Shown here: positions 3,960 to 50,054 of the stretch, piece by piece
Numbering within the stretch: the first letter of the stretch is position 1
Layout: each line of letters opens with the position of its first letter
Assembly (NCBI GenBank): GCA_045598525.1
Contig: JAZLMH010000023.1
Span: 10,004-74,003, forward strand
Source of the DNA: Bacilli bacterium
GTDB taxonomy: Bacteria > Bacillota_I > Bacilli_A > RFN20 > CAG-826
Reading direction: 5' to 3'
Length of the DNA: 64,000 nucleotides
Made by a program: the position numbers and the translations under genes
The notes under the pieces: model-generated
What the model saw: the letters and a program-made list of their open reading frames with translations, nothing else
What the model was told of the DNA's origin: nothing
Database searches by the model: none

Positions 3960-6572
3960 TTAGTTGCCCTTATATGCGTCTTTAAGAATCTGCATGAGAT
4001 CTTTAACAAGAGGCATTCTTGGGTTTGCTGGAGTGCACTGATCTTCGTAAGCGAGATAAGCGATGTCCTCAAGCTTGCTATTGAATAATTCTTCGTCTGG
4101 GATAAGAGATTGGAAGTTCATGTCGATTCCAATGTCTTTACCAAGATCTAAAACCGCTTTTGAAAGGACATCCTTAGCTTCTTCTCTTGTCTTGCATTCA
4201 AGACCTAAGGTATTGCAGATCTCCATGTATTTCTCGTCGCAGCAGTATTCTTCATACTTTGGCCAGACGCCAAGTTTTGTCGGAACTGTGCCATTATATC
4301 TGATGACGTGAGGCAATAAGATTCCGCATGTTCTGCCGTGGACTGTATGGAATTCAGCGCCGACCTTGTGTGCTAATGAGTGAGCAATGCCAAGGAATGC
4401 GTTAGCAAATGCCATGCCTGCGATTGTCGCAGCGTTATGCATGTGTTCTCTAGCATCAAGATCATTCTTGCCGTTCTTGACACAGCGTGGAAGGTATTTG
4501 AAGACGAGTTTGATAGCGTTTAATGCAAGACCGTCTGTGTAGTCGCTTGCTAAAACTGATGTATATGCTTCAATTGCGTGGGTGAGAACGTCCATACCGG
4601 TCTCAGCGGTTGCTCTTGCTGGAAGATTGGTGGTGAATTCTGGATCTACAATCGAAACAGTTGGTGTCAATGAGTAGTCGGTTAATGGATATTTCTTGCC
4701 GTTTGCCTTATCTGAAATGACAGCAAATGGTGTAACCTCTGAGCCTGTGCCAGAGGTTGTTGGGATACAGATTAACTTAGACTTTCTTCCAAGTTCAGGA
4801 TATTTGAATGCTCTCTTACGGATATCCATGAACTTTTGTTTTAAGTTGTCAAAGTCAACTTCTGGATGTTCATAGAATAACCACATGCCTTTAGCGGCAT
4901 CCATTGGTGAACCGCCACCTAAAGCGATGATTGTGTCAGGCTTGAACTGTTCCATGAGAGCAACACCGCGCTTGACGGTTGTGATATCTGGATCAGGCTC
5001 GACTTCGCTGAATAACTGATAAGTAACTTCGTTTCTTCTCTGATTGAGAATGTCGATGATCTTGTTTAAGAAGCCAAGCTCGACCATTGATCTATCTGTG
5101 ACGATGAAGACCTTACCAACTTCTTTACACGATCTTAAATATTCGATTGAGTTTCTTTCAAAATATATCTTCTGAGGGACTTTAAACCACTGCATAGTAT
5201 TTCTCCTTTTTGCAACTTTCTTGATGTTCAATAAATTGAGTGCGCCAACGTTTCCTGAGACGCTGTTGTGTCCGTAGGAACCACACCCGAGGGTAAGCGA
5301 TGGGATAAGTGAGTTATAAACGTTACCAATACCACCGAAAGTTGTTGGAGAATTCCAAATAATACGAATTGCTTTTACTGTATCACCAAATCTTGTAGAC
5401 ATTTCCTGGTCGTGACAGTGAATGCCTGCTGTGTGGCCAAGACCGCCAAATTCGAGCATCTTCTCGCAAAGGTCTGTGCCTTCTTCAAAGCTCCTAACTT
5501 TGTAGATGGCTAAGATTGGTGAGAGCTTTTCTCTAGACATTGGTTCTGCGTCACCGACTTCTTCTGCAAGGGTTGCGATGATTGGAGTTTCTGCAGGAAC
5601 TTCAAATCCAGCGTTCAAAGCAATTTTTGTTGCTGGCATGCCAACTACTGGAGCATTTAATTTTGCTTCAGCGACATTTTTGTCCCCTTTAGCAACGCCA
5701 AAGAGATATTTTTCAAGCTTTCTTGTTTCTTCTGGTGTCGCGAAATAGACTCTGAATCTCTTCATGGTCTCAACAAACTCATCATAGACGTTTTCATGGA
5801 CAAAGATTGCTGATTCAGAAGCGCAAATCATACCGTTATCGAATGCTTTTGAAAGGATGATGTCATTGACCGCTCTCTTAATGTCAGCTGATTCGTCAAC
5901 ATAGACAGGGACGTTACCTGCGCCAACGCCAAGAGCTGGTTTGCCACAACTATAGGCGGCTTTGACCATTGCGTTTCCACCTGTTGCTAAAATCGTTGCA
6001 ACACCATCATGATTCATTAGGGCTGACGTCGCTTCAAGTGAAGGATGTTCAATCCATTGGATGCAGTTTGCCGGAGCGCCTGCCTCGATTGCTGCCTCAA
6101 GCATGACCTGAGCTGCGTGTTTTGAGCACTGCTGTGCGCTTGGATGAAAACCGAAGATGATAGGGTTTCTCGTCTTGATAGCGATTAAGCATTTAAAGAT
6201 GACTGTGCTTGTTGGGTTTGTAACAGGCGTGACACCTGCAACAACACCGACTGGTTCAGCGATTTCAGTGATACCACTTACTGAGTTCTCTGAAATGACG
6301 CCAACCGTCTTGGTGTGTCTCATGTTGTTAACAACATACTCACAAGCGAATAAGTTCTTGGTTGCTTTGTCCTCAAATACACCACGTCCTGTTTCTTCAA
6401 TTGCGTGTTTAGCTAATATGCCGTGTTTGTCTAAACCGGCAACGCTCATTCTAGCAACGATATAGTCAATTTTTTCTTGGTCAAAAGCATCAAATTCATT
6501 AAGTGCGACTAAAGCTTTTTCGACAAGAGAATTGACTTCTTCTTGAGCGGATGAAATTTTCTTTTCTTCCAT
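3960..6572 (-). CDS. adhE: Bifunctional acetaldehyde-CoA / alcohol dehydrogenase
   Basis: 870 aa. An N-terminal aldehyde dehydrogenase domain is fused to a C-terminal iron-containing alcohol dehydrogenase domain with GGGS and His-rich metal motifs. Confidence 0.95.
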   Translation of the reverse strand: MEEKKISSAQEEVNSLVEKALVALNEFDAFDQEKIDYIVARMSVAGLDKHGILAKHAIEETGRGVFEDKATKNLFACEYVVNNMRHTKTVGVISENSVSGITEIAEPVGVVAGVTPVTNPTSTVIFKCLIAIKTRNPIIFGFHPSAQQCSKHAAQVMLEAAIEAGAPANCIQWIEHPSLEATSALMNHDGVATILATGGNAMVKAAYSCGKPALGVGAGNVPVYVDESADIKRAVNDIILSKAFDNGMICASESAIFVHENVYDEFVETMKRFRVYFATPEETRKLEKYLFGVAKGDKNVAEAKLNAPVVGMPATKIALNAGFEVPAETPIIATLAEEVGDAEPMSREKLSPILAIYKVRSFEEGTDLCEKMLEFGGLGHTAGIHCHDQEMSTRFGDTVKAIRIIWNSPTTFGGIGNVYNSLIPSLTLGCGSYGHNSVSGNVGALNLLNIKKVAKRRNTMQWFKVPQKIYFERNSIEYLRSCKEVGKVFIVTDRSMVELGFLNKIIDILNQRRNEVTYQLFSEVEPDPDITTVKRGVALMEQFKPDTIIALGGGSPMDAAKGMWLFYEHPEVDFDNLKQKFMDIRKRAFKYPELGRKSKLICIPTTSGTGSEVTPFAVISDKANGKKYPLTDYSLTPTVSIVDPEFTTNLPARATAETGMDVLTHAIEAYTSVLASDYTDGLALNAIKLVFKYLPRCVKNGKNDLDAREHMHNAATIAGMAFANAFLGIAHSLAHKVGAEFHTVHGRTCGILLPHVIRYNGTVPTKLGVWPKYEEYCCDEKYMEICNTLGLECKTREEAKDVLSKAVLDLGKDIGIDMNFQSLIPDEELFNSKLEDIAYLAYEDQCTPANPRMPLVKDLMQILKDAYKGN

Positions 6573-10183: not shown

Positions 10184-12529
10184 TTAGGAAAGTGTTGCTG
10201 GTGATTGGACATCGACATAGTCGAGGTTTGCGCAGTTTGACTGATGAACTGTAATGGTAACTTGGTTAGCTCCTGCTCTAAGGTTAGTCATACCAACTGG
10301 CATAGAGATGAATTCATGGTAGTCATCACTCGTGTATGCTGGAACATATTTATCAGCAGTTGGGTTGATTGTGTTTCCATTAACAGAAATTGTCATCAAG
10401 CTAGATAAGGTGGTGTAGTTATGTTTACCCCATCCAAGATAGAGATATGCGTCTGCTGCAGTAGAAGCGTTAACAGTGAAAGATAATATGTCACCACTTA
10501 CGAAGCTGCCAGCGTATCTGCCACCAGATGCTCCATATCTAGTTCCATCTTTGTTCATGATGGCCCCGCCGGTAAGACTCATGTTTTCAGCTTCATAACG
10601 ATGCTTTTGAGCAGTCTTAACGGTGTTATCGTCGTCGTTAAACTGGATATGTTGCTGCTGGCCGCCGCCTTGGCCACCTCCGCTACCAACTTCAGGAAGG
10701 TTCGGATAGATAACCGGGGCAGTTAATTGGAGATCGCCGTTTCCGTAAATGCCATCAAGATATAAGAATCTAGCGCTAACCCAGTTCATTAAATCCTGAG
10801 CAGCTTGTTTTTGATTTGTTCTAGCGTTTGCTCTATTGCATTTCTCGCTCATTCTCTGCCACTTCTGTGGCCATTTATTCTTTAAGTTAGTGAAATCGGT
10901 CTCGTAATTTGTAGCGACAGTGTCAATAAGGTTGAGAGAACTTTGGAATAAGTTGAAGTGTTTCATTTCTTGCCACTTCTGCTGAATCATATCCATGAAC
11001 CAATCTTCGTGGATGAGAACTGTAAACCACGCATTTGGATAGTATGGTTGTTTGTTTTGTCCTTTGTGGTTTGCTGCGAATGTGCTGCTTGTTGGGTCCT
11101 CCATTCTTGTGGTGACGCCATAACCGGAGTCATAGTCCCAAGGAGCTTCGAATGTTAACTTCTTGTCCCCTGTTGCGGACATATCAACATCAAGGTAGAA
11201 AGAAGAATAACCAACGTCTGGGTCGCATGCGATGTCTTGGAGAAGATACATGTCAACAAGCGACTGAACATTAACTGCTGCTTCAACACATTCTTTTGCG
11301 CTTGCAAATTCTCCAGCTGCTGCAGGAACAAGAGCAGAGTGGTCATCATTAAACTTATAGAATGTGTTCTGTTTTGCTGCTGAATACATTAATTTATAGC
11401 AGTTTTGCACGTAATTTTTGAAGAAGTTACGCTGTGCGTCGTTATATGTATCGCTCTTAATTGTGTATCCTCTGATGAAGTCTCTGACTGTATCTCCATC
11501 AAAGTTTGTCAATGAGTTTCCTTCATAGTTTATTGTGAAGGTGTAATCACCGCCGAGAGCAAGATTTTCCTGGTCATAGTAGTAGTCAAGCTCGCAGATA
11601 TAACCAATATCAGTCCCTTGATAATCGGTTGCTACCTTGGAAACGTTCATTCTTGTATCGCCTTCTTGCTGTTGTTCAGCTAAAAGGTAAACACCCCAAT
11701 ATTGACCATTAAGGTAAACATTAACGTGTCTAGAATCAGATGAATAAAGGCCATCTGCTCTAAGCATGTTGTTTGCCATGAAGAACGATAAGAAGTTATT
11801 GGTATTTGAGTTGTCCTTATAATCAGCGAGAAGAACCCATGATTTATATTTCTCATTACCGTTTAGTCCGAGCATCGACTGCTTCTTGTCGAACTTAATG
11901 CGAATACCTTTCTGAACATAATCAAGGGTATAGTTGCCACGAACTTTAACTCCGCCTGTTGCAGCTGTTATGTCTGTGTTTGCTTCGCCGTTAGAAACGG
12001 AAATAGAGGCGGTTTCGTAGTTGATTTCGTGTGTTAATTTGTAATCGCGGTTGTACTGGGTTGCCCAGTTATTGCTACCGCCGTTTGCTGTTGTTGTAAT
12101 ATCGATTCTTGGGAGCGATGCAGGTGTCTTCGCTGTAAATTGATAGGCCTGAGCGATTGCTGAGTCTTCTGCAGGTGGTGTGTAAGAAATAGGTTCTCTT
12201 GAGCTAGAAGCCGCTTGGCTTGACGAAGAAGCAGGTGCACTGCTGCTTTGTGCCGATGAACTTGAAGACTGGGCTTTTGAGGAGCTTGATTGCGCTTTTG
12301 AGGAACTGGATTGGGCTCTTGAAGAGCTTGATTCCGCCTTTGAAGAACTTGAGGAAGCTACTGAACTGCTCTTTGTTTCTGAAGACGCTACCGATGAGTC
12401 TGTCTTTGAAGATAAAGAGCTTTGTGCTTCTACCTTTGATTCTTCTTTGGAGGCTTGGTTGGTGCCACTGCATGCCGCAATCAAAGGCATAGCGAGAGCA
12501 AAAGCCATTAACTTAAATAAAGGTTTCAT
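10184..12529 (-). CDS. Secreted lipoprotein with a Ser-rich linker, a CotH-kinase-like central domain and a C-terminal carbohydrate-binding-module-like domain
   Basis: 781 aa. The signal has an LIAAC lipobox. About 70 aa of Ser-rich repeats follow. The central region has CotH-like acidic motifs (YLLQDIACDPD, EAPWDYDSGYG). The C-terminus is a beta-sandwich-like tail ending CANLDYVDVQSP. The family assignment rests on remembered motifs. Confidence 0.45.
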   Translation of the reverse strand: MKPLFKLMAFALAMPLIAACSGTNQASKEESKVEAQSSLSSKTDSSVASSETKSSSVASSSSSKAESSSSRAQSSSSKAQSSSSKAQSSSSSAQSSSAPASSSSQAASSSREPISYTPPAEDSAIAQAYQFTAKTPASLPRIDITTTANGGSNNWATQYNRDYKLTHEINYETASISVSNGEANTDITAATGGVKVRGNYTLDYVQKGIRIKFDKKQSMLGLNGNEKYKSWVLLADYKDNSNTNNFLSFFMANNMLRADGLYSSDSRHVNVYLNGQYWGVYLLAEQQQEGDTRMNVSKVATDYQGTDIGYICELDYYYDQENLALGGDYTFTINYEGNSLTNFDGDTVRDFIRGYTIKSDTYNDAQRNFFKNYVQNCYKLMYSAAKQNTFYKFNDDHSALVPAAAGEFASAKECVEAAVNVQSLVDMYLLQDIACDPDVGYSSFYLDVDMSATGDKKLTFEAPWDYDSGYGVTTRMEDPTSSTFAANHKGQNKQPYYPNAWFTVLIHEDWFMDMIQQKWQEMKHFNLFQSSLNLIDTVATNYETDFTNLKNKWPQKWQRMSEKCNRANARTNQKQAAQDLMNWVSARFLYLDGIYGNGDLQLTAPVIYPNLPEVGSGGGQGGGQQQHIQFNDDDNTVKTAQKHRYEAENMSLTGGAIMNKDGTRYGASGGRYAGSFVSGDILSFTVNASTAADAYLYLGWGKHNYTTLSSLMTISVNGNTINPTADKYVPAYTSDDYHEFISMPVGMTNLRAGANQVTITVHQSNCANLDYVDVQSPATLS
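12205..12420 (-). repeat. Tandem repeats encoding (S4-5 K/R A Q/E)n within the lipoprotein linker
   Basis: The protein repeats SSSSKAESSSSRAQSSSSKAQSSSSKAQSSSSSAQ, and the nucleotide level shows near-identical ~15 nt units. The overlapping ORFs 12034..12492 are repeat artefacts. Confidence 0.6.
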
Positions 12530-13533: not shown

Positions 13534-14658
13534 TTATTCTGCTTTTATTTGTTTGTTGGCCTTTTTGTTTTCATACATATTCTGGTCAGCTTTATCTAAT
13601 GCAGTTTCAAGAATTTCGATTTCAGGATTAAATTTTGTGTATCCATATGCAACTTCTGGTAGTTTGTATTCACTAATTTTGTTTCTTTCGATTTCTAGTT
13701 TTTCCAAGCATTCCTTAATCAATGCTTCGACATCACAATTTAGATTTTTGGTCGTGATACAAATGAATTCATCTCCGCCAAACCTATAGCATAAAAAATT
13801 GTTTTTGGTGAAGGTTGATTTGACTGCACCTGATATAATTTTGATTACTTCATCGCCAACAGCGTGGCCATATTTATCATTAATTTGCTTAAAATCATTG
13901 ATATCGAAAGAAACAATGACCTGAGCTTTATTCTCGGAGCTCTTTACATGAACGTCATAGGACAATCTGTTCATAAGTCCTGTCAACGAATCTGTTTTAT
14001 AACTAACCGAATACATATATGTGTAAAGCAATGTGAGGCCAATTATTGCAACTGGCCAATCAACCCTGATTTCGCTCCAAAAAAGGTGGATTGATAAACC
14101 AATAACGCCGTAGAAAAAGATCGCAATCAAGAATTGTATATCCTGTTTTTGGCTTCTTTCTGAATATCTTCCTGTCTCGAAAAGAAGATAGAAGATTGAG
14201 ACAAAATAACTGAGGTTGTAAATGAAATATAAATGAGCGTGGGCGTATACACCATTCTTGAATGTATAAATTAGCCATTCGAATTCGAAAGGCGCAGCAA
14301 CGCAGGAGACGATTTCTAACAGGAAGTTGAAAATAATGATTCCGAAAACGACACGGCAAATAGATTTTTTATATTTAAACCCAAGCGTCCAAACAAAGAC
14401 GGCAACAGGGGCCAAAGAATGTTCGAGCATTATCAAAACATCTCTAACAATGAAAAGGAATCCTTCCGTGGCACCACTTAACTTCTGATAACCGAATTCG
14501 CAAAGAGAAGACAATATCAAAATAATGAAGGTGACAGATGCAGAAATCTTTTTCCTTCTTTCAATAATTGGATTAGTCGTAATAGAGACTATTACCGATA
14601 ATGCGACTAAAACGCCTATTAAGATTATCGCTGAATAGAAATCCATTTTCTCCTCCAT
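13534..14658 (-). CDS. Membrane-bound diguanylate cyclase (GGDEF domain), second copy in the window
   Basis: 374 aa. About 8 TM helices are followed by a GGDEF domain (YRFGGDEF). It is co-directional and adjacent to the hydrolase gene. Confidence 0.8.
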   Translation of the reverse strand: MEEKMDFYSAIILIGVLVALSVIVSITTNPIIERRKKISASVTFIILILSSLCEFGYQKLSGATEGFLFIVRDVLIMLEHSLAPVAVFVWTLGFKYKKSICRVVFGIIIFNFLLEIVSCVAAPFEFEWLIYTFKNGVYAHAHLYFIYNLSYFVSIFYLLFETGRYSERSQKQDIQFLIAIFFYGVIGLSIHLFWSEIRVDWPVAIIGLTLLYTYMYSVSYKTDSLTGLMNRLSYDVHVKSSENKAQVIVSFDINDFKQINDKYGHAVGDEVIKIISGAVKSTFTKNNFLCYRFGGDEFICITTKNLNCDVEALIKECLEKLEIERNKISEYKLPEVAYGYTKFNPEIEILETALDKADQNMYENKKANKQIKAE

Positions 14659-14764: not shown

Positions 14765-16003
14765 TTATTTAAAGAGTCTTTCTAAGAGGCCTTTTAATGC
14801 TTTTCCGTGTCTTGCTTCATCTCTAGCCATCTCATGAACGGTGTCGTGAATTGCATCAAGACCATTTTTCTTAGCACAGAGGGCAAGATCGGTTTTTCCT
14901 TGTGTAGCGCCAAATTCACAATCAACTCTCCACTTTAGGTTTTCTTTTGTGGACTCTGTCATCTTTGGCTCGATTTCGCTTCCAAGTAATTCAGCAAATT
15001 TTGCTGCGTGTTCTGCTTCTTCATAAGCGGCTTTTTCCCAATATAAGCCAGCCTCTGGATAACCTTCTCTATGAGCGATTCTAGCCATGCAGAGATACAT
15101 TCCAACTTCGGAGCATTCTCCAGCAAAATTGGCTTTTAATTGTTCTAAGATGTAGGCTTTGTCTTCTTCAGAAACAGCTGGATTGTTCTTAACTGTTTTT
15201 GCATAAACGCCAAATTCGTGTTCTGCTGCAAGCTTCATTTCTCCTTCAACAATAGTGAATTTTTCTCCTCTGACATGGCAGACTGGGCATTCTGCTGGTG
15301 GTTGATCACCTTCGTGGACGTATCCACAAACAGGGCAAACATATTTTTTCATTTTTTGGTTCTCCTTTATGTTTATTTGTTTATTATTAATTTTTTCGAA
15401 ATCTGAAGCTGGATGCTTGCATATTGGGCAAATGAAGTTTTCTGGTAATTCTTCCCCTACATACTCATATCCGCAGACAGTACAGCGCCAGATTATTTCG
15501 CCATTTGGCATAGTTCCCACGGGAATTGGCTTAGGCTTGATGTTCTTCTGATAGAAGTCGTATGTAGCAGACGCTTCTTCACTAATAACTTCCATTTCAG
15601 TTATGGTTCCAACAAACTCTGTATGCGAACCCAAATCGATTGTTTTTGCAACTTTCACTGAAATAAAAGCGTTGGTGCCATTTGAAATATAACAGATACC
15701 GTTCTTGCTTCTTTTTGAAAATTTGAAAGACTCAAACTTGTTGACCGCCTTGCCGCTTTGGAATCCAAAATGTTTAAACAAATCAAACGTTGCAGATTCG
15801 GAAATAACGGAAACGTTGAATAATCCAGTTTTCATGATTAAATCATGAGTTAGATTTTCTTTGTTTACTGAAACGCTCAATTGCAAAGGTTCGGAAGCAA
15901 TCTGAATCGCGGTATTAATGATGCAGCCGTTGTCTTTTTCGCCATCACGTACAGTGAGAACAAATAAGCCATAGCTGAGCTTATGCATTGCTTTGGTGTT
16001 CAT
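14765..16003 (-). CDS. Fusion protein of a flavin reductase-like domain, two rubredoxin-like domains and a reverse rubrerythrin diiron domain
   Basis: 412 aa. The N-terminal ~150 aa is flavin-reductase-like. Two CxxC...CxxC rubredoxin modules follow (CTVCGYEY..CPIC and CPVCGYVHEG..CPVC). The C-terminal ferritin-like domain has paired E...ExxH motifs. Confidence 0.8.
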   Translation of the reverse strand: MNTKAMHKLSYGLFVLTVRDGEKDNGCIINTAIQIASEPLQLSVSVNKENLTHDLIMKTGLFNVSVISESATFDLFKHFGFQSGKAVNKFESFKFSKRSKNGICYISNGTNAFISVKVAKTIDLGSHTEFVGTITEMEVISEEASATYDFYQKNIKPKPIPVGTMPNGEIIWRCTVCGYEYVGEELPENFICPICKHPASDFEKINNKQINIKENQKMKKYVCPVCGYVHEGDQPPAECPVCHVRGEKFTIVEGEMKLAAEHEFGVYAKTVKNNPAVSEEDKAYILEQLKANFAGECSEVGMYLCMARIAHREGYPEAGLYWEKAAYEEAEHAAKFAELLGSEIEPKMTESTKENLKWRVDCEFGATQGKTDLALCAKKNGLDAIHDTVHEMARDEARHGKALKGLLERLFK

Positions 16004-16196: not shown

Positions 16197-16224
16197 TTGC
16201 AAGATGTTTTTCCCTAGATATTAT
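16197..16224 (+). promoter_or_regulatory. Candidate sigma-A promoter (TTGCAA-16-TATTAT) directly upstream of the riboswitch
   Basis: The hexamers were read by eye, with -35 ttgcaa at 16197..16202 and -10 tattat at 16219..16224. The predicted +1 falls at the aptamer 5' end. Confidence 0.35.
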
Positions 16225-16225
16225 T

Positions 16226-16302
16226 TAACAGCGTTAAAGGCAAAACCGTGGCAACGCGGCGACGCAAAACTAAAGGGCCCCATTGGGGCAGCCAGTTACC
16301 GT
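16226..16302 (+). promoter_or_regulatory. GEMM / c-di-GMP-I-like riboswitch in the 5' leader of the 16351..22753 operon
   Basis: The leader carries AAAGGCAAAACC, a CCGUG-GCAA-CGCGG hairpin with a GNRA loop, CGACGCAAAAC, a GGGCCCCAUUGGGGC P3-like hairpin, and GCAGCCAGUUACCG. These parallel the V. cholerae Vc2 aptamer elements GGGCAAACC / GAAA loop / GGACGCAAAGCC / GUUACCGA. Downstream, a CCUC-CAAA-GAGG hairpin can sequester the SD. Confidence 0.65.
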
Positions 16303-16344
16303 AAAAATTGAGGTGGTTTTATTCTTAAACCCCTCCAAAGAGGA

Positions 16345-17187
16345 ATGGCAATGGAAAAAAGGTACAAAAGAAAAGCTGCTGCTCTCATGGGCCTCACAGT
16401 TCTTTCTTGTGGAACATTGTTTGTTTCTTTAACGGCTGCTTGGTTCACAACCTTAAGGCAGGCACAGAATAACACAGAAGGCTTCAAGATTGGTGACACT
16501 GTACTCATCGAAGAGATCAAATTCTATCAACATAAATCAACCACTAACGGCTTAATCGATTTTTATCCAGCCGAATCAACCTACGAAATCGGAGATGGGA
16601 GATATAAGTCAGACCTGGGCTTCTATAACCTTCTCGAATCAAATTACCAAACTTTAATGGAAATCACCCTAACAAAAGATGCCGTTGATGGAGAATATGA
16701 ACTCGACTTCAACGCCACCACTTTCGCTACCCAATCTCATTTGACAGCCAACTCAACGGGTTCGCCAAATTACCCTTTAACAAACGACCCTTCGAGAAAC
16801 AATAGTCTTTCTTCGATTATAGACTTTTATGTTTTCTTTCAGAAAGACGTACAAGTTAGCAATCAAAAAATAAGTCTCTCAAAAGCAGAGAACGAAAATA
16901 ACAGAGACATAAACAATAAAGAAATATGCAATTTTATAGATAAGAATGATGACATAGTCGAATCAAAATCTATAAATCTTGTTAGTTTTAACGCAAAAGA
17001 TATTGCTGTAGACGGAGTATCTAAAATCTATGTCATGCTCGACTACAACGAGGAAAACTGCGCAAAGATGTATGGTAACAACATCGGTAATACAGCCATC
17101 GAAAAAGGCCATTTTTTAAGGAAAGGAACGGACTTACCAATTTTGAAGTTCGACGCGGACTTCGAATTTGATTTGATCATGAAGTGA
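16345..17187 (+). CDS. Secreted ~280 aa protein with a TasA/camelysin-type (SipW-cognate-like) signal peptide; candidate TasA-like fibre or matrix subunit
   Basis: The N-terminus is a basic stretch, a hydrophobic core and an AAWFTT motif (compare TasA GGGTWAAFND and CalY GGGTFAFFSD). The C-terminal strand DFEFDLIMK resembles TasA QFSFEATQ. The real start is probably the ATG at 16351, 7 nt after the GAGG SD. Confidence 0.5.
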   Translation: MAMEKRYKRKAAALMGLTVLSCGTLFVSLTAAWFTTLRQAQNNTEGFKIGDTVLIEEIKFYQHKSTTNGLIDFYPAESTYEIGDGRYKSDLGFYNLLESNYQTLMEITLTKDAVDGEYELDFNATTFATQSHLTANSTGSPNYPLTNDPSRNNSLSSIIDFYVFFQKDVQVSNQKISLSKAENENNRDINNKEICNFIDKNDDIVESKSINLVSFNAKDIAVDGVSKIYVMLDYNEENCAKMYGNNIGNTAIEKGHFLRKGTDLPILKFDADFEFDLIMK

Positions 17188-20100
17188 TGAAGATAAGAGA
17201 AAAGATTAAAAAACTGTTACTTATCTTTGGCTTTACCGCCAGCGCTTTTGCAGTGCTTGTTTCTTCTACTTTTGCTTGGATTGTTTCTTCTAACAAAGTT
17301 CCTATGGGCAATACCACAGGTTATACTCAAGGCGCTTATTTCGCGCGCGGCCGCGGTACACATGATGACCCATACATTTTGAACGCACCAATTCACTTAT
17401 ATAACCTTGCCTGGCTCCAGGAAATGGGAAAATTCAATGTCATCGATGAGACCACGGGCAAATATGAGCCAGTCTATTTCGAGATGGAAGCAGATATCGA
17501 TGTCTCTGAAACCGAATATCAGAAACTTCCTCCAATTGGCACTCCTGAATATCCGTTTATTGGTAACTTCAATGGTGCAGGCCACACGATTTCCGGTCTT
17601 AAGACATGCAACGAATTAGGCAGCGGAGAGGATCAAATCCTTAGAAAGCCTTCAAGCGTAACAGACATCAGCAACGCAAATGTCATGGGTTTCTTTGGCG
17701 TCGTTGGACCATATAACGGAAATCCTTCAGCAGCCACATACAACAGCCAAGCAAACGAGATCAAAAACTTTAACATCAAAAACTATTCAATAATTTCCAA
17801 AACATCAAACCTTCTTGTCGGTGCCGTCGCAGGCTACATCAATGGAAAAATTTCAGAAGTTGCCGTTTCTAGTGAAGGCGATGGAATCACTTTCGATATT
17901 GGTGAAAGCACATCAAAATTAGGCACATTCAACAACCTCAGTGATTATGGTCTGGTCGGATATGCCGCAGAGGAATACAGAACCGAGTTAAATAACGAAA
18001 AGGTTGAAATTTATAACACGTTCATAACTGACGGTGATTCTGCAGGCAGTTCCTCAGGAAACCAAGACGCTTGGGGCGGAAACATTACCGCAGGAGATTT
18101 AAGCAACAGAATCAACACCCTTGCTGGCGACTCAGGAAACCAAACCGCTCTTAAATGGGAAAACAAAGTCAAAGAAAGAACGGCTTTTGTCGAAGGGGAA
18201 ACCGTCTATTCAGAAACAATTGTCGAGTACACCGATGAAGAATTAATGGTTGGAGCCTCCCAATATGAAGACGCAAACAACAAGTTAAAAGGCAAGGTTA
18301 TCTATGGAGAAAACCAAAACAATGATTTTTATGGTTCTTTAGACAGACCGGAAGAACTTGGCTATAGAGAAACTATTTATTCTCCTGGAGGGTCTGCTGA
18401 TTCTGACGACCCTGGCTCTGGATCTACAGGAGGAGGAGAACCATCAGACACACCAGGAGGAAACGTTGATATTCCTGGACGTCCAAAAAAATTTAAGGAA
18501 CCTACAACAGACGAATCCATTAACTACCAATATATCAAAGGCGGCCAATGGGGAGGCTTTGACAGTTTTAATGAAACTGAAGCTAACGGATCAATCTTTG
18601 AAAGAGATGAGCATTATATAATTACATTCACTGCGTCTAACAAATTTTATCTAGGTTTATGGAGCCTCGGGGAAAACGACGTAGTTCAATTAAACACAGG
18701 ACAATCTTATGTTTTCAGGGATTGGGGACAATATTTAAGACTTTGTGAGAGAAACGATTATGAGTCTGAAAAGCCGTGGTATCTCAGATACAACGGGCAA
18801 TCTCTAGTTTTGACAGGCAACGAAAGTTGGGCAAACGTTGTTTTCATCAACAACAAACTTCGTATTGACCCTACAAACATCACACATAACGCAAGAATTA
18901 CGTCTCCTACAACTGGATTAAATACCGCAGCCTTTAGCTATAACAATCAGGCATCTAAGTATTCCTTGCCAACAACTTTTCGTGCCAACGAGGGGCTTGT
19001 TCCTGTCCCTTATTACTTCCTCGAAAACCAAAATGGCGGATCACCAACAGTTACAAAAGATAGAAGCAATGCTACAAAGTTCACTTTAGACGCAAACAAC
19101 TTCTTGTTGTTTAAAAACAAAAGCGGAAACCAGGTTAACATCGGTACATATAACGAATGGACTTTTGAGCAATACGTTATTGCTAACGATAATTTAGGCA
19201 TGGCTTTTAGGGTCGTAGAGGAAGACGGAAAAAGCTACATCAGGCTTTACAAGAGAGTAACAAACGATAATGGAACAACATTGACTGCCCAAAGCCAGTA
19301 TTTGTATTACGATAACGTGTCTTTTGGTTATACAACGAATAGAGCAGAATCCAACGTCGTATTTGATGTTGAATCAAGCAAGCTTAAAACAGTCAAGTAT
19401 TGTCAAATAAGCGATTTAGGCGAGGATGACTATATCCCAACTACAAAGAACAAAAAACACGAAGAAAAGGTCGGTTCTTCCTACCTTCCTTTAAACGTAT
19501 ATAACACCACGCCGATCCCAGCCGAAGACCAAACAAACTTCTGGAACAATAGCACTCTCAATCCTGATGGATTAACTCCAGGTTTGTATACCCCTACACC
19601 AACAAATAATGGTTATGTCGTTGGCGGTACAAAAAATGATAGTGTCGATCTTACAGACGCAGCTGCAATTAAGTTTAATCAGTTCAGCGGCGTTGCCCCT
19701 TTTGGCGGAAACCAATTTGATGTTATGACTGTTAACCCTTCTTCTGGTCAATTCACATTTGTCAAAGATGACGGAGAATCTAGTGCAATATCTGCAAATA
19801 GAGAAACGCTTAGCCACATTCAAGACTGGAGCAAACACTCATATAGCGATTTAGGTCTACAAAGATTCAAAGAATCCAAAGCGACAATCGGAACAAAGCT
19901 TGGCACCGACCAAACTTTCATGCGCTTCAACGGAGTTAATATCAGCGATAAAGAAATCGTTACGGCAGATTATGCTTTATTTAATCAGCATATCTACAAA
20001 GATTATGAATTACCTGAATCTTCATTTGATTTCAAAGTTGAGGATGAGGTAGGAATCTTTAACATGTTCACAAGCGCTTATAGAGAAGGCGCGGATTGTA

Positions 20101-21206
20101 CAGGCTTTGCCTCTTTCTATCAAATCCTTAGAGATGGGGATGAAAAAATTACAGAAATCAAACGTATCAGTAAAATTTATGGCGACGATTCTGGCAATAT
20201 CGCATATCAGTATTTTGAAGACATCTCTTCTGCAACAACGGCTGATGGTTATTTTGATAGCGATCAGAATGCGGTCTCGATTACTGGATATACCTTAAAA
20301 TTCGACATGGCTTGGTTAGAGAGCCCAGGATTTGCAAACACCCATGCAGGTTGTTATTACTTCGAATGGCCGGCTGCCCAAGGCGAATACGCAATTGCAT
20401 CAACCCCAAATAGCGAAACAGAAGCAAAGAACGGCTATATGTATTATGTCGGAGTCGGTGCTCCAGTAGAAAACATTCAAAGAACACAAATCTATGAAAA
20501 ATACGTTAAAACAAAAACCTCCAGCACTGTTGTTAAAGGCGTTTATTTCGTAAACGACTTAAGCGATCCTCGCTCTTCAAGCAATAATCTTGCCATCAAG
20601 ATTGAAGATGGATTTACAGGCGTCATCTCTATTTCCTCAAACGCTAGCAACGAAGTCATCGTTGAAGGTTTTAATTCCACTACTACCGAACTAAATTACA
20701 AAAACTATGACACGGTATTCAAAGAGTCAAGCGACGCTTCGGACGAAATTGAAGTCGGGTCTTCGTCGGCAATAGAAACAACAGTAGAAAAAGTAACGTA
20801 TATCGACGGTGAAGGAGACAGCCAAAAAATGTATTCCATCACCAAGACTACAGTTAATAACAATGGCGTTTTAAGTGACCCTGTTAGAGAAGGCGTTTTA
20901 TATGAGACGATCGGGGCAGAACCTAAGAATTACGAAAACGCTGCAATGAATCCAACCAACACTAACGTCAATACTGTCATTTATGAGTTCCACTACACAT
21001 TTATAAAAGAAGATGTTATTGAGCTGACCGTGGCGTTCAAGCTTGATGACGGATCAATGACAACAGGCAAATATTACGTTACCTTTGAGGGTAACTCTGA
21101 AGACGTCAACATAACATTCAACGTATTCGACAGCGATGAGATTGGCATTTACCTAAATGACGCTCTGGTTGAAACGTTTACCATATTGGTGGAGGCTAAT
21201 TTATGA
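17184..21206 (+). CDS. Giant 1340 aa secreted protein with a SipW-cognate-like signal and a beta-helix-like N-terminal domain; putative adhesin or fibre-associated protein
   Basis: The signal is KKLLLIFGFTASAFAVLVSSTFAWIVSS. Just after it comes GRGTHDDPYILNAPIHLYNLAWL, the G-x-G-T-x-x-x-P-Y-x-I cap common at the start of pectin-lyase-fold beta-helices, then FIGNFNGAGHTISGL. A Gly/Asp/Pro-rich linker sits near residue 410. The start overlaps the upstream stop (GTGATG). No recognisable catalytic motif was found. Confidence 0.6.
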   Translation: MMKIREKIKKLLLIFGFTASAFAVLVSSTFAWIVSSNKVPMGNTTGYTQGAYFARGRGTHDDPYILNAPIHLYNLAWLQEMGKFNVIDETTGKYEPVYFEMEADIDVSETEYQKLPPIGTPEYPFIGNFNGAGHTISGLKTCNELGSGEDQILRKPSSVTDISNANVMGFFGVVGPYNGNPSAATYNSQANEIKNFNIKNYSIISKTSNLLVGAVAGYINGKISEVAVSSEGDGITFDIGESTSKLGTFNNLSDYGLVGYAAEEYRTELNNEKVEIYNTFITDGDSAGSSSGNQDAWGGNITAGDLSNRINTLAGDSGNQTALKWENKVKERTAFVEGETVYSETIVEYTDEELMVGASQYEDANNKLKGKVIYGENQNNDFYGSLDRPEELGYRETIYSPGGSADSDDPGSGSTGGGEPSDTPGGNVDIPGRPKKFKEPTTDESINYQYIKGGQWGGFDSFNETEANGSIFERDEHYIITFTASNKFYLGLWSLGENDVVQLNTGQSYVFRDWGQYLRLCERNDYESEKPWYLRYNGQSLVLTGNESWANVVFINNKLRIDPTNITHNARITSPTTGLNTAAFSYNNQASKYSLPTTFRANEGLVPVPYYFLENQNGGSPTVTKDRSNATKFTLDANNFLLFKNKSGNQVNIGTYNEWTFEQYVIANDNLGMAFRVVEEDGKSYIRLYKRVTNDNGTTLTAQSQYLYYDNVSFGYTTNRAESNVVFDVESSKLKTVKYCQISDLGEDDYIPTTKNKKHEEKVGSSYLPLNVYNTTPIPAEDQTNFWNNSTLNPDGLTPGLYTPTPTNNGYVVGGTKNDSVDLTDAAAIKFNQFSGVAPFGGNQFDVMTVNPSSGQFTFVKDDGESSAISANRETLSHIQDWSKHSYSDLGLQRFKESKATIGTKLGTDQTFMRFNGVNISDKEIVTADYALFNQHIYKDYELPESSFDFKVEDEVGIFNMFTSAYREGADCTGFASFYQILRDGDEKITEIKRISKIYGDDSGNIAYQYFEDISSATTADGYFDSDQNAVSITGYTLKFDMAWLESPGFANTHAGCYYFEWPAAQGEYAIASTPNSETEAKNGYMYYVGVGAPVENIQRTQIYEKYVKTKTSSTVVKGVYFVNDLSDPRSSSNNLAIKIEDGFTGVISISSNASNEVIVEGFNSTTTELNYKNYDTVFKESSDASDEIEVGSSSAIETTVEKVTYIDGEGDSQKMYSITKTTVNNNGVLSDPVREGVLYETIGAEPKNYENAAMNPTNTNVNTVIYEFHYTFIKEDVIELTVAFKLDDGSMTTGKYYVTFEGNSEDVNITFNVFDSDEIGIYLNDALVETFTILVEANL

Positions 21207-22753
21207 AATTAAACTTGGTTCTAATAGCTGCAGGAGTTTTTGCTCTTGCTAGTTGCGCAAATTCTAATAATGGGAGCGGCAGCAAGGCTCCATCAAGCAG
21301 TACTCAAAGCGAAAACAGCACTAAATTAGTTTTAAGTAACGACATCGAAAAAGCAGAAAGAGACATCGATAATTCTTTCAACGCTTTTATGTCTGCCAAA
21401 GATAATCAAACCAAGAATGCTTTGTTTTTTGGTCTAAATAAAGCAGCCGCAATAGCAGAGTTAAATCTTCATGGAAACATCGCATATGAAGGTCATGATA
21501 ACGGCGAAAATAGCGCTTTTGTCAAAGTGACAGCAGAACCAATGAGCCAAGCTTATGGTTTCCTTGAATCAATAGTCCTACAAGGCCACCCTAAAGAAAA
21601 CTACTCAGGAAAGAGTTTCTTCACCAGCCCTAATTCAAATAGGCTTGGCATTCTTACTTTCGAAGACAGGAATGAAGTAATAATCGAATATTGGAGTGAT
21701 TATCATATGGTAATCGGCAACGATGATGCTGGACCATATGTCTTATCTTTCAACTTTAGCGAAAAAGAACAATATCTCAATTATGAGACACCTTATTTTG
21801 GTTTCGTTTATAACAACGTTGAAGACAATTTCGAAGAAGATTATGAAGCTATAATGAACTTTGCTTCTTCTACTCTAGACGTCTCTTCAGCACCTTTTTC
21901 CATGGTTAAAGAAATCTATTTAGATGATGGAAGGGACCTTCACCCTACTTATAGTAGCGAAAATCCTGATCATGTTTTGTATAGCAAAGTTAAAAATAAG
22001 TATTTTAGCGATAACGTCCTTTCTGAAATCTATTTCAAAAAGAAATATTATGTTGGAGCACTTAATAGCCAAGACACATTAGAAATTAGCGACAACACAT
22101 TAAGAAGCGTGGATTACCTTTCAATGACTTTTGAACTAGATGTTCCTGAAGGAGTTACGACAATCGAAAAACTCTATGGCAATAGCGATAGAACGAACTA
22201 TATCTACTGCCTTCATCTTCCTAGCAGCGTAGAAACAATTCTTCCTTCAGCAATCAACGAAAATGTTATAACTGATTGCGTTTTTATCGATGGAGAAACC
22301 CCAAAGCCACAATTGGAATCTGTTTTAAAGGGATTTAATCCAGATATTAAAATCTATTATTCTCCAGATTTCCAAATTGTTGGAGGACTGTATGTCCCTA
22401 ATGCTTTCCATAACCAGTCCACAGAAGATGACCATGAACACGTATTCACTAAAAAGATTGCTTCAGAAAATATATTTTGCGAAGAAGCAAATTGCCAACA
22501 CCCAACAAGATATTTCTATTCTTGCAACGAATGTGACGCCACATCAATCGCAGTTTTTGAAGAGGGCGAGTTAGGCAGTCATATTTTCAGTGAAATTGAA
22601 ATGCAAAACAGGTTCCCTTGCATTGGGTATTTCGTATACGAACGCTGTGAAATCTGCAACGAGCAAACATCGACATGGGTCGACCCTGTGGACGAAGGCC
22701 ATGAATATAACGAAGACGGTCACTGCAGATACTGCGGTAAATTAAATAACTAA
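21203..22753 (+). CDS. Lipoprotein with BspA-type LRR-like segments and a Cys-rich C-terminal domain (putative zinc-ribbon-like)
   Basis: 516 aa. The signal has an LASC lipobox. A 4 nt ATGA overlap couples it to the giant gene, and GGAGG sits 9 nt upstream. The C-terminus has CEEANCQH...SCNECD...CIGYFVYERCEICNEQ...GHCRYCGKLN with eight or more paired Cys. Confidence 0.55.
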   Translation: MKLNLVLIAAGVFALASCANSNNGSGSKAPSSSTQSENSTKLVLSNDIEKAERDIDNSFNAFMSAKDNQTKNALFFGLNKAAAIAELNLHGNIAYEGHDNGENSAFVKVTAEPMSQAYGFLESIVLQGHPKENYSGKSFFTSPNSNRLGILTFEDRNEVIIEYWSDYHMVIGNDDAGPYVLSFNFSEKEQYLNYETPYFGFVYNNVEDNFEEDYEAIMNFASSTLDVSSAPFSMVKEIYLDDGRDLHPTYSSENPDHVLYSKVKNKYFSDNVLSEIYFKKKYYVGALNSQDTLEISDNTLRSVDYLSMTFELDVPEGVTTIEKLYGNSDRTNYIYCLHLPSSVETILPSAINENVITDCVFIDGETPKPQLESVLKGFNPDIKIYYSPDFQIVGGLYVPNAFHNQSTEDDHEHVFTKKIASENIFCEEANCQHPTRYFYSCNECDATSIAVFEEGELGSHIFSEIEMQNRFPCIGYFVYERCEICNEQTSTWVDPVDEGHEYNEDGHCRYCGKLNN

Positions 22754-22891: not shown

Positions 22892-22936
22892 AAAAAAAGG
22901 ACCGTCGTTTCTGACGGTCCGGGTTTGTTATTTCTT
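22892..22936. terminator. Bidirectional rho-independent terminator between convergent genes
   Basis: An 8 bp ggaccgtc / gacggtcc stem with a 6 nt loop is preceded by caaaaaaa and followed by gggtttgttatttctt. Confidence 0.65.
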
Positions 22937-32709: not shown

Positions 32710-34758
32710 TTGTGGCACAAACAAAGGAGGTGGCTTATGAAAAAGATTCCACTATTTATCGCCTTATCTGTCTCAATGTTGTTGGTCGCTTGCGCTTCAG
32801 CAAAAGATGAATCAAACATGTCTTATTCAAGCAAGGAAACCGATGAATCTTCTTATGGATCTTCTTTAATCGTAGGGACTGACAGTTCTTCTCTTGAACC
32901 AGCAAGCTCTATAGCAAGCGCAACCTCTGTTTTTGTTGACCCTAATAGCTTTGTCCGAACAATCCAATCAGCTGGAACATATACAATTACAGGCAATATT
33001 AACGGTTCCATCCTGATTGACGCGCCTGAGACAGACGAAATTGAAATCAACTTAGATGGCGCAACCATAACTTCGACAAACAATTCCCCAATCTACTGCA
33101 AAAGCGCAGGCGAATTGAAAATCAAGTTAACTGGAAACAATGTGATCAATGACAACCGCGCCCAATTGAATGTCGATGAAGAAGACCCACTACAGGGAAA
33201 GGGAGCCATCTATTCTAAATGTGATCTCAAAATCACAAGCTCAGGATCGTTAACAATTAACGCCAACTATAACAATGGAATTCATTGCACAGACGACGTT
33301 AAGCTAAAATCCACTTCTACAGTTAATGTCACAGCTGTTAATCATGCTATTAAAGGAAACGATTCTGTTACTGTTGAGTCTGGAACAATCACATTGATTT
33401 CTAAATGCGGGTCCGGACTCAAAACCGAAAAAACGTCAATTTCTTCGAAAGGAAACCAAAAAGGAAACATCGAAATCACGGGTGGAGATTTAACTATTTT
33501 TTCATGCGAAGACGCAATTGAAGCTGCTTATAACGTAGTTATTGAGAACAATCCAAAAATCGATATAAAAACAAGCAATTACTCAGAATATACGGTAGGA
33601 AGTATTTCAGGGGGTTCTAATGACCAAATCGGCGCAAAAATGTATCTTAGAACAAGCACTAATACATATAACTATTCTGTTCAATTCAGGAACGCTCAAA
33701 ACGAATTAACGTGGGCAGATGCAACCTATTCAACAAGCAAATCAGGCTCAAGAGGAACGACTTACTATTTTTATGAATTGGCTAAGCCTAATGATGCCAT
33801 ATCAATGAAGGTGTACCTCTACCAAAAATCTGTTACTTCCAGAAGAGAAGATAACGCAATGCTCTCTTCCTCTTTCATTAATATCAATTCCAATTATGAT
33901 ACCGCTGTTCTTTCGGTTGGTTCCTCTAGCATCACCTGTTCCCAATGGGCAAACTTCGCTCAGCAAAGCGGCCCAGGAGGAGGCGGCCCTGGTGGATGGG
34001 GTGGCACGCAAGAAGGCAACAGCAACAAAGCGGATTATTCCGCAAAAGGCATAAAATCTGATAACGAGATATATATTAGAGGCGGAGACATTTCGGTCAT
34101 GTCATATGATGATGCAATCCACGCAGGAAGAGGCGCTGTTTTAGAAAATGGTGAAACAGGCGTAGGGAACGTCCATATATCCGGTGGAACAATGTCTTTA
34201 TATGCCTCAGACGATGGTATACACGCCGACTACATTAACGATATTTCTGGCGGCGAAATAAACATCACCAACTCGTATGAAGGAATTGAAGGAAATATAT
34301 TAAACATCTCCGGTGGCAATATAAAAGTCTACTCCACTGACGACGGTCTTAATGCGGCTAACAAAGCTGGAGTAAATCCAGAGATCAACGTATCAGGAGG
34401 CACGTTAGACATCACTGTTTACGGTGGCGATGTTGACGGAATTGATAGCAACAACACGTATACCCAAACTGGCGGTATCGTGATAACCAAGGGCGGTACA
34501 GGAGGCATGTCAACAGGTTTAGACACAGACGGCACCGCTAGAGTAGACGCAGGAACATTGATCGTATTTGGAAGGCCAGAAAATACGCCTACATTAGGAG
34601 CTGGCGTTACTTCTTATACTTTGAGCGGAAGCTATACACTTGGAACTTATAGGGTAAGCAACGGCATCAATAGCGTAGATGTCTCTACTAAATATTCCTA
34701 CACAGCCATCTATGTATACTCAAACGAAACAAGCAGATACACGGTTGAAAGGAAATAG
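32710..34758 (+). CDS. Lipoprotein with a right-handed beta-helix, carbohydrate-binding (DUF4353 / Cthe_2159-like)
   Basis: 682 aa. The signal has an LVAC lipobox. DDAI/DDGI/DDGL turns recur about every 40 aa, typical of beta-helix coils. A Gly/Pro-rich GPGGGGPGGWGG linker is present. Confidence 0.45.
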   Translation: MWHKQRRWLMKKIPLFIALSVSMLLVACASAKDESNMSYSSKETDESSYGSSLIVGTDSSSLEPASSIASATSVFVDPNSFVRTIQSAGTYTITGNINGSILIDAPETDEIEINLDGATITSTNNSPIYCKSAGELKIKLTGNNVINDNRAQLNVDEEDPLQGKGAIYSKCDLKITSSGSLTINANYNNGIHCTDDVKLKSTSTVNVTAVNHAIKGNDSVTVESGTITLISKCGSGLKTEKTSISSKGNQKGNIEITGGDLTIFSCEDAIEAAYNVVIENNPKIDIKTSNYSEYTVGSISGGSNDQIGAKMYLRTSTNTYNYSVQFRNAQNELTWADATYSTSKSGSRGTTYYFYELAKPNDAISMKVYLYQKSVTSRREDNAMLSSSFININSNYDTAVLSVGSSSITCSQWANFAQQSGPGGGGPGGWGGTQEGNSNKADYSAKGIKSDNEIYIRGGDISVMSYDDAIHAGRGAVLENGETGVGNVHISGGTMSLYASDDGIHADYINDISGGEINITNSYEGIEGNILNISGGNIKVYSTDDGLNAANKAGVNPEINVSGGTLDITVYGGDVDGIDSNNTYTQTGGIVITKGGTGGMSTGLDTDGTARVDAGTLIVFGRPENTPTLGAGVTSYTLSGSYTLGTYRVSNGINSVDVSTKYSYTAIYVYSNETSRYTVERK

Positions 34759-49975: not shown

Positions 49976-50047
49976 ATCTGTAGCTGGCTGCCTTTTAGGG
50001 CCCTATAGCTTTGCGTCGCCCGATTTCTCGAGTTTTGCTCTTTAAGA
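49976..50047 (-). promoter_or_regulatory. Second GEMM / c-di-GMP-I-like riboswitch on the minus strand, upstream of the locus-2 cassette
   Basis: The minus-strand RNA reads UUAAAGAGCAAAACUCGAGAAAUCGGGCGACGCAAAGCUAUAGGGCCCUAAAAGGCAGCCAGCUACAG. It aligns position for position with the locus-1 element (GCAAAAC; GNRA hairpin CUCGA-GAAA-UCGGG; GGCGACGCAAAGC; GGCAGCCAG). It abuts the RBS AUAGGAACCAAUG of the 290 aa gene. Confidence 0.6.
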
Positions 50048-50054
50048 TGCGCAC

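Follow-up and report, generated by a model that had tools for sequence, protein, structure and literature searches.

The 64-kb window described here (the whole stretch of DNA that was analysed, 39% G+C, from contig JAZLMH010000023.1 of a Bacilli bacterium) contains two loci in which a class I cyclic di-GMP (c-di-GMP-I) riboswitch aptamer precedes, on the same strand, a gene for a small protein and a gene for a giant protein, both predicted to be exported (Table 1). Covariance-model searches identify both aptamers as RF01051 matches that cover the full model (positions 1-87) and exceed its gathering score of 35, which bears out the two GEMM riboswitches called in an earlier reading of the sequence alone (the original prediction). 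The aptamer and the small gene are separated by 42 nucleotides (nt) in locus 1 and by 9 nt in locus 2. As first proposed, a gene of about 280-290 amino acids (aa) comes first in each locus (280 aa and 290 aa), and the three open reading frames (ORFs) of locus 1 lie where they had been placed, joined by the junctions GAAGTGATGAAG and TTTATGAAA, both of which are stop/start overlaps (GTGATG/ATGA). The 516-aa lipoprotein gene is co-transcribed with the giant gene in locus 1 because its start overlaps the stop of the giant gene (ATGA), and in locus 2 a gene for a leucine-rich repeat (LRR) protein begins 2 nt past the stop of the giant gene. The Shine-Dalgarno (SD) sequence GAGG at 16340-16343 suits the second ATG of small protein 1 (16351) better than the first, and the database entry P0001 agrees with 278 aa; the true start is likely this second ATG, giving a protein of that length.

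Table 1. Features of the two riboswitch loci and of an accompanying protein family in related loci. Positions are those of the 64-kb window or, where an L number is given, of that related locus. GH3, glycoside hydrolase family 3.
Feature	Position	Strand	Remarks
Membrane GGDEF protein	13534-14658	-	PF00990, E 1.3e-26; intact GGDEF at residue 294
Promoter-like TTGCAA-16-TATTAT	16197-16224	+	consensus scan; 3' end 5 nt short of locus-1 aptamer
c-di-GMP-I aptamer RF01051, locus 1	16229-16303	+	61 bits, E 1.8e-9; G at Vc2 G20-equivalent
Weak terminator-like hairpin, locus-1 leader	16294-16326	+	AGUUACC (aptamer 3' strand) / GGUGGUU, then UUAUUCUU
Small protein 1, predicted exported, 280 aa	16345-17187	+	hydrophobic N-terminal helix ending T-A-A-W-F, then predicted beta-sandwich
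Giant protein 1, predicted exported, 1340 aa	17184-21206	+	transmembrane/signal helix ending T-F-A-W-I, then predicted chain of beta domains
Lineage-specific lipoprotein, 516 aa	21203-22753	+	lipobox LASC; Cys-rich C-terminus
Bidirectional terminator-like hairpin	22899-22920		shared 3' end of locus-1 operon and convergent GH3 gene
BspA-type LRR_5 surface protein gene	42707-46177	-	PF13306; split into 406-aa and 724-aa ORFs
Giant protein 2, ~983 aa once repaired	46180-49129	-	three pieces; two 1-nt deletions
Small protein 2, predicted exported, 290 aa	49095-49967	-	S-L-A-W-F; distant same-family member
c-di-GMP-I aptamer RF01051, locus 2	49976-50049	-	55.2 bits; A at Vc2 G20-equivalent; without terminator
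G-x-F-T-[VI] family member	L005 2231-3238	-	
G-x-F-T-[VI] family member	L020 5157-6002	-	
G-x-F-T-[VI] family member	L041 16612-17448		
G-x-F-T-[VI] family member	L074 20551-21384		
G-x-F-T-[VI] family member	L079 7017-7847		
G-x-F-T-[VI] family member	L024 15756-16484		
G-x-F-T-[VI] family member	L043 690-1403		
G-x-F-T-[VI] family member	L025 618-1325		
G-x-F-T-[VI] family member	L009 4937-5893		

The small and giant proteins of the two loci are distant members of the same two families. The small proteins share approximately 18% identity and align by BLASTP at the N-terminus only (E 0.07), and the hidden Markov model (HMM) of the family recognizes them with E-values of 6e-53 (locus 1) and 1.5e-23 (locus 2). 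Between the giants, identity (33-36%) is confined to the N-terminal ~140 aa, besides which they share a C-terminal motif. Giant 2, once repaired to 983 aa, matches the family HMM at E 1.3e-33 and retains the N-module as well as the C-module motif, which reads FKLPQGEYCIG...IYFLAAQG compared with the consensus YYFEIPVNxGEYALGS...YLDIGAN. G-x-G-T-x-x-x-P-Y-x-I and LPPIG..F.G.F.G..I..L occur in both giants. In all four proteins a long hydrophobic stretch ends in A-W-F/I, a pattern found elsewhere among the ORFs of the window only as one antisense chance match. The common N-terminus and the shared motifs of the giants thus stand as originally described. The description of the loci as two paralogous cassettes holds for the small-plus-giant pair, which belongs together by profile, with the proviso that sequence identity is low.

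The pair is conserved well beyond this genome. An exhaustive profile search assigns 390 cluster representatives (50% identity) to the small family, 103 of them at E ≤ 1e-10; this search was needed, as a word-indexed search with the small-protein alignment returned just 23 proteins. Members are 210-330 aa long and nearly all are matched over most of their length. For the giant, a search at E ≤ 1e-3 yields 680 proteins, and none of the 120 matches listed comes with a precomputed Pfam domain; where a source name is given, as it is for a few, it reads hypothetical. Giant relatives share two modules (residues ~20-320 and ~900-1160 of the query) flanking a variable middle. No Pfam or NCBIfam model matches either family. 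In a survey of one genome per species we confirmed 245 relatives and retrieved 79 loci, referred to by L numbers. By database label the carriers comprise about 44 Bacilli-type metagenome-assembled genomes (MAGs), about 22 Clostridia and one Eggerthellaceae, with Bacteroidota-labelled bins among the remainder. The Bacilli-type carriers include Acholeplasmatales, Anaeroplasma, Erysipelotrichaceae, Ca. Onthovivens, Clostridium sp. CAG:288 and 'Mollicutes', and all surveyed carriers come from gut, rumen or faeces.

The riboswitch is part of this conserved arrangement. Using a custom covariance model built from eight Rfam-confirmed aptamers, we found 78 c-di-GMP-I aptamers in 1.27 Mb of related loci, mostly directly 5' of a small-family gene, and all 14 that were sampled were re-confirmed as RF01051. 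An aptamer lies immediately before a small-family gene in 59 of 86 cases and immediately before a giant gene in 4 of 86. Seen from the giant (79 unique giants that have 1.5 kb or more of sequence upstream, from species-representative genomes), a small-family gene is located at -53 to +63 nt in 67, an aptamer lies at most 2.5 kb upstream in 56, and both are present in 50. Six contexts obtained by exact protein look-up show the order aptamer, small gene, giant gene in five. The association between aptamer and pair is far beyond chance, and a pair behind a GEMM-I aptamer is a conserved architecture without a Pfam or NCBIfam model. Tandem c-di-GMP-I aptamers also precede genes of the pair system, approximately 40 nt apart in L057 (7950-8025/8065-8141), L088 (7928-8003/8041-8117) and L087 (339-412/451-524) and approximately 410 nt apart in L066 (5008-5086/5499-5578).

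The conserved unit consists of two genes, the small and the giant one. Downstream of the giant there is either no further gene of the operon or a different one in each locus, and LRR-like ORFs number five across all loci, those of the window included. In L001, the closest syntenic relative, the giant is 61% identical and the flanking genes are those of the window (AdhE-CotH-hydrolase-GGDEF on one side, GH3-RluA-GDSL-DUF362 on the other); the 516-aa gene is missing there and GH3 directly follows the giant. The variability of the downstream genes and the lack of the 516-aa gene in L001 therefore define the unit as a dyad, with third genes as local additions. The original prediction had instead placed the same three genes, ending in a BspA-type LRR protein, in both loci and expected the triad to recur in relatives. 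A BspA-type gene is indeed present in locus 2, where PF13306 (LRR_5) matches 44957-46177 at E 8e-38 and 42707-44881 at E 3e-24. The 516-aa lipoprotein of locus 1 has no LRR_5 match at E ≤ 0.1 in Pfam and NCBIfam scans, no similarity to the LRR proteins of locus 2 (BLASTP E 2.2 over a 14-residue stretch), no sequence relative in the PDB and no homologue among approximately 85 related loci. Its identity as an LRR lipoprotein is thereby ruled out, as is a three-gene system: the third genes of the two loci are unrelated to each other, and the third gene is absent from the relatives. The C-terminus of the lipoprotein (residues ~410-516) carries several CxxC/HxxxC pairs and a weak Cys_rich_CPXG match (E 0.034, below the cut-off), an odd feature for an extracellular lipoprotein.

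Riboswitch leaders across the family contain terminators built from the aptamer itself. A hairpin of 6 base pairs (bp) or more, with its 5' arm in the aptamer 3' strand (typically AGCCAGUUGCC) and a U-tract after it, is present in 30 of 59 unique leaders, compared with 2.4 ± 1.5 such leaders (maximum 8) when the downstream sequence is shuffled. Because the 5' arm of the terminator is the 3' strand of the aptamer, a folded, ligand-bound aptamer would exclude the terminator, which corresponds to ON logic; we infer that the ligand switches the genes on, and the c-di-GMP induction originally suggested is in line with these terminators. Leaders with spacers of 7-20 nt look translational, and in the free fold of the L005-type leader it is the 5' strand of the aptamer itself that pairs with the start region. 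In L013, L014, L016, L033, L055, L074 and others no SD sequence is visible and the U-tract of the terminator continues directly into the annotated ATG, reflecting either mis-set starts or unusual initiation. In the window, locus 1 carries a promoter-like site that is a pattern match only, such sites being no commoner in the region than in shuffled sequence. The stem of its terminator-like hairpin has 7 bp, three of them G-U pairs. It competes with another hairpin at 16310-16335, which contains a CCUC that might pair with the SD sequence. A three-hairpin relay through this leader (aptamer / GGUGG / CCCCUC / SD) is put forward as a possibility only, its states not being separated by constrained folding.

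The ligand is by default presumed to be c-di-GMP because an intact GGDEF protein is encoded beside locus 1. Its gene adjoins the locus in the window and is directly adjacent and divergent in L001, and this membrane protein is the likely local source of the signal. Many aptamers of the family deviate at the position equivalent to G20 of Vc2, which is A in 45-48 of 81 unique aptamers, locus 2 included, and G in 33; within a single gene family this proportion of A20 is unusually high. G20 makes contact with one of the guanines of c-di-GMP, and riboswitches for 3'3'-cyclic GMP-AMP (cGAMP) have A in its place; Vc2 with the G20A substitution binds c-di-GMP as well as cGAMP, and a natural variant from Clostridium beijerinckii is bispecific (PMC6140456). 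The ligand may thus include cGAMP where aptamers carry A20. Taken further, the prevalence of A20 and the lack of a clear thermodynamic ON signature in the two leaders of the window could be explained by an OFF switch, or by a response mainly to 3'3'-cGAMP, at least in locus 2. We regard this as unlikely: locus 1 has G20 and an adjacent canonical GGDEF gene, A20 variants are still able to bind c-di-GMP (PMC6140456), and half of the family leaders have a terminator that the folded aptamer would exclude.

Predicted structures suggest that the giant is a surface protein made of binding domains. The model of giant 1 (residues 1-1200, pLDDT 82.9) consists of beta domains strung along low-confidence linkers, with a predicted beta-helix at ~50-285, a further domain at 296-402, a Gly/Ser/Pro linker at 403-433, a beta-trefoil-like domain at ~434-567 and more beta domains after it, among them the conserved C-module at ~900-1160. 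Residues ~50-285 match PDB entry 3n6z by family profile (E 4e-4), a match that spans exactly the cap (G-x-G-T-x-x-x-P-Y-x-I) and the rungs (LPPIG/F-x-G-x-F-D-G); the giant-family profile also matches the trefoil lectin SeviL (E 2e-3). The label of beta-helix protein given originally fits approximately 230 residues, the first part of the ectodomain; the rest of the 1340-aa protein is modelled as lectin- and carbohydrate-binding module (CBM)-like domains. Neither giant contains HExxH or LPXTG, and no glycoside-hydrolase, lyase or peptidase family matches the giant at E ≤ 0.1. With its beta domains, its lectin match and no enzyme family or HExxH, the giant is therefore read as a non-catalytic glycan-binding surface protein, most likely an adhesin, and the surface role proposed at the outset agrees with its modelled fold. 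Degradation rather than adhesion would be the alternative use of such domains, with the beta-helix acting as a polysaccharide lyase or hydrolase and the CBM and lectin domains targeting dietary or host glycans for foraging. Carriers do come from gut and rumen, and genes for a GH3 and a Cthe_2159-type protein lie in the window, but this explanation is improbable given the enzyme searches above and given that the neighbouring GH3 gene is convergent and also stands beside the pair in L001, where the pair has no third gene, as expected of ordinary synteny. A phage tail-fibre or depolymerase identity of the giant was rejected, with three weak relatives in 2.9 million viral contigs and a chromosomal context.

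The model of the small protein (pLDDT 81, pTM 0.76) shows an N-terminal helix followed by a beta-sandwich that structure comparison places nearest to DOC/CBM35/GH2 sugar-binding domains. The protein is most likely the obligate partner of the giant, serving as a subunit, a stalk or an assembly factor. It had been called TasA-like, and here the evidence divides. TasA is not among the best 60 structure matches of the model, PF12389 (TasA/camelysin, Peptidase_M73) matches 0 of 91 family members at E ≤ 0.05, and the family profile finds no PDB sequence at E ≤ 1, hence none to TasA. What does resemble the TasA system is the export signal and, in some relatives, the gene neighbourhood.

In both families the N-terminus consists of a basic n-region and a hydrophobic helix of approximately 20 residues ending in [ST]-x-A-W-F, and the Trp is invariant in both family alignments. 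When 106 N-termini of the small family are aligned on this Trp, position -3 is T or S in 80% and position -1 is A in 90%; among 85 giants, position -3 is S or T in 89% and position -1 is A or S in 93%. This -3/-1 pattern is that of a putative signal-peptidase site directly before the Trp. An hhalign comparison sets T-x-A-W-F of the small family on T-W-A-A-F of TasA, in the signal region only and with a probability of 4.7%. Of 72 loci, 12 have a SipW-like peptidase gene (E < 1e-10) no more than 10 kb from the giant, among them loci of Bacilli and Acholeplasmatales MAGs, and one such gene has its own aptamer. In the Eggerthellaceae cluster L009 a PilZ gene and six further A-W-F proteins are found together with a signal peptidase whose scores are 107 bits against the archaeal-type model TIGR02228 and 97 bits against that for SipW; one paralogue of this cluster reaches 13 bits on the SipW-cognate signal model TIGR04088 (cut-off 19). 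Gene neighbourhood is independent support for a SipW link. The L009 cluster has no riboswitch and is headed by the PilZ-domain gene (4260-4931), which suggests c-di-GMP control at the protein level where the aptamer is missing.

A third unannotated family, absent from the window, recurs in neighbourhoods of the pair (Table 1). Its members have 240-335 aa and a transmembrane (TM) helix followed immediately by G-x-F-T-[VI]-x-L, and they often stand behind their own RF01051 aptamer or right before a SipW-type peptidase gene.

Taken together, we favour, with moderate confidence, a reading in which each locus is a riboswitch-controlled operon whose core encodes a translationally coupled pair, a beta-sandwich protein of ~280 aa and a multidomain protein of ~1000-1600 aa, both exported through the same unusual N-terminus, with the giant acting as a glycan-binding adhesin. 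When the level of a cyclic dinucleotide rises, the aptamer would fold and keep its own 3' strand (AGCCAGUUGCC), which when free would form the 5' arm of the terminator or mask the start region. The pair would then be turned on and the cell would become adhesive. The genes after the pair would be lineage-specific add-ons, a lipoprotein gene in the first locus and an LRR_5 gene in the second. Several observations weigh against this reading. No aptamer is detectable for 23 of the 79 giants, and no other riboswitch class was found by Rfam in seven aptamer-less related loci; control by cyclic dinucleotides is therefore frequent and not obligatory. The two leaders of the window are the least informative of the family on the direction of the switch, in that constrained folding does not separate the ON and OFF states of locus 1, whose energies are similar, and a leader hairpin scan finds no terminator in locus 2. 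Locus 2 is moreover damaged downstream of its small gene. Finally, TIGR04088 matches 1 of 91 family members (E 0.026) and does not recognize the family, and the 64-kb window contains no S26 catalytic box or SipW-like ORF.

The last two results mean that the N-terminus could be an uncleaved anchor. The helices of both proteins would then act as signal anchors in a membrane-bound complex, in which A-W-F forms an interfacial aromatic belt or a helix-helix contact and the small protein holds or presents the giant. A hydrophobic stretch of ~20 residues is TM-like, such anchoring suits wall-less, Mollicutes-like Bacilli, and most carriers are Bacilli/Mollicutes-type MAGs; no SipW gene is nearby in 60 of 72 related loci or in the window, and the 1:1 translational coupling fits a stoichiometric complex. 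We nevertheless consider a membrane-anchored complex possible rather than probable, as small residues conserved at -3 and -1 typify a cleavage site, SipW genes occur within several clusters, one of them under the same riboswitch, and a housekeeping signal peptidase could cleave without a neighbouring gene. Cleavage by SipW is in turn the starting point of a further alternative, a fibre of the TasA/TapA type, which gives the fibre suggested originally a concrete form: both proteins would be cut before the Trp, the small protein would polymerize by donor-strand complementation into a matrix or pilus fibre, and the giant would serve as a TapA/AbpB-like initiator, anchor or tip adhesin. The site [ST]-x-A|W-F obeys the -3/-1 rule and is the part that hhalign aligns with TasA (T-W-A|A-F), SipW-type peptidases recur nearby, with several A-W-F paralogues plus SipW in clostridial and Eggerthellaceae clusters, and the segment after the helix has low confidence in both AlphaFold2 models (residues 27-44 and 27-49), as would a strand that has no partner within its own molecule. 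The failure of PF12389 and of PDB sequences to match the family, the lack of a sipW gene in the window and the differing residues after A-W-F in the small and giant proteins make a TasA-type fibre doubtful. Equally tentative is a broader conjecture of one hitherto unrecognised cyclic-dinucleotide regulon, responsive also to cGAMP where A20 is present, in gut Mollicutes-like Bacilli, Clostridia and Eggerthellaceae. It would comprise the G-x-F-T-V family and SipW-type peptidases besides the pair and the additional A-W-F paralogues, and would build a new class of extracellular fibre: SipW would lay bare an N-terminal W-F strand, the small subunits would join by strand complementation, and the lectin-rich giant would be the tip adhesin or initiator.

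The damage in locus 2 comprises three lesions within approximately 7 kb. Two are frameshifts in the giant gene, each due to the loss of 1 nt from a short homopolymer (the C-run near 48895, the T-run near 46890). The third is an in-frame TAG (44957-44959) that divides the LRR gene; the repeat pattern is continuous across it, and the two LRR ORFs are thus one gene. All other genes of the window that were examined look intact, which favours our reading of the lesions as recent decay, with sequencing or assembly error or slippage as alternatives. Recoding, of UGA or otherwise, is inapplicable to two frameshifts and a TAG codon.

Other genes of the window add to its surface- and glycan-related content, namely a 781-aa CotH kinase-like protein (10184-12529, minus strand) and a 682-aa Cthe_2159-type carbohydrate-binding beta-helix protein (32710-34758, plus strand). 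Between the GGDEF gene and the riboswitch of locus 1 lies a gene for a 412-aa fusion of flavin reductase, rubredoxin-like and rubrerythrin domains (14765-16003, minus strand), which is absent from the same position in the syntenic L001.

The finding is more general than the original prediction could see, and it corrects that prediction in three respects: the unit is a dyad and not a triad, likeness to TasA is unproven, and locus 2 carries lesions. Uncultured Bacilli of gut and rumen, with apparently reduced genomes, make up most of the carriers, and to our knowledge their surface biology is essentially unexplored. For these organisms the tight linkage of aptamer, small gene and giant gene provides a regulatory handle and a candidate for attachment to host or dietary glycans. 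The recurrent link to SipW and the conserved [ST]-x-A-W-F predict a dedicated route of export or assembly, and with its many A20 aptamers the family lends itself to comparing the sensing of c-di-GMP and of cGAMP outside Geobacter.

Riboswitch-controlled adhesin operons are a known regulatory theme, while the protein families and the architecture described here appear in no database model or paper that we found. In Clostridioides difficile, c-di-GMP-II riboswitches precede adhesin and pilin genes, and the Bacillus collagen adhesion protein gene cap is induced at high c-di-GMP, following ON logic. The closest regulatory parallels come from Bacillus thuringiensis, where two reports describe the c-di-GMP-I RNA Bc2 in the 5' untranslated region of cap, which is strongly repressed in the parent strain, and the triple-tandem riboswitch Bc3-5 before the surface-protein genes cspABCDE (PMC4933901, PMC4759541). 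The loci of the window likewise have a GEMM-I aptamer in the 5' leader, ahead of operon genes for large surface or adhesion proteins, and tandem aptamers as in Bc3-5 occur within the pair family (L057, L087, L088). In contrast to the Bc2-cap system, the regulated proteins are unrelated and the pair lacks LPXTG, a cell-wall anchor and a collagen-binding domain; the A-W-F small-plus-giant pair is also without Pfam or NCBIfam models, and it is carried mostly by uncultured Mollicutes-like Bacilli and Clostridia of the gut.

The protein side of the system recalls tapA-sipW-tasA of Bacillus subtilis, sipW-bsaA of Clostridium perfringens and the archaeal bundling pili AbpA/AbpB, which also combine exported beta-rich proteins with a peptidase of the ER/archaeal type; in our case such a peptidase lies near some relatives (PMC9245690, PMC7395162). 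As in these systems, the nearest analogues on the protein side, a small subunit-like protein and a larger partner share an export signal, with a cleavage-site-like T-x-A|aromatic-F motif. The dyad belongs neither to the SipW-dependent matrix systems nor to the known riboswitch-adhesin operons. Unlike in the TasA system, the mature domains have no detectable TasA homology and the window has no sipW gene, and unlike TapA the giant partner is 4-6 times larger and is predicted to consist of beta-helix, lectin and CBM domains. The matrix operon of Bacillus subtilis is under SinR-type repression. The giants further resemble M26 IgA1 proteases and BACOVA_03286 (PDB 3n6z, 7jgj, 7uvk) in the predicted N-terminal beta-helix at residues ~50-285. 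This module alone is shared: the giants contain no HExxH metalloprotease, G5 or LPXTG and are not members of the M26 IgA1 protease group. Finally, more than half of the aptamers of the pair family carry A20, as do the GEMM-Ib (3'3'-cGAMP) riboswitches of Geobacter (PMC6140456). Unlike those, the aptamers of the pair score as ordinary RF01051 members and are found in Firmicutes beside a canonical GGDEF gene, with G20 in locus 1.

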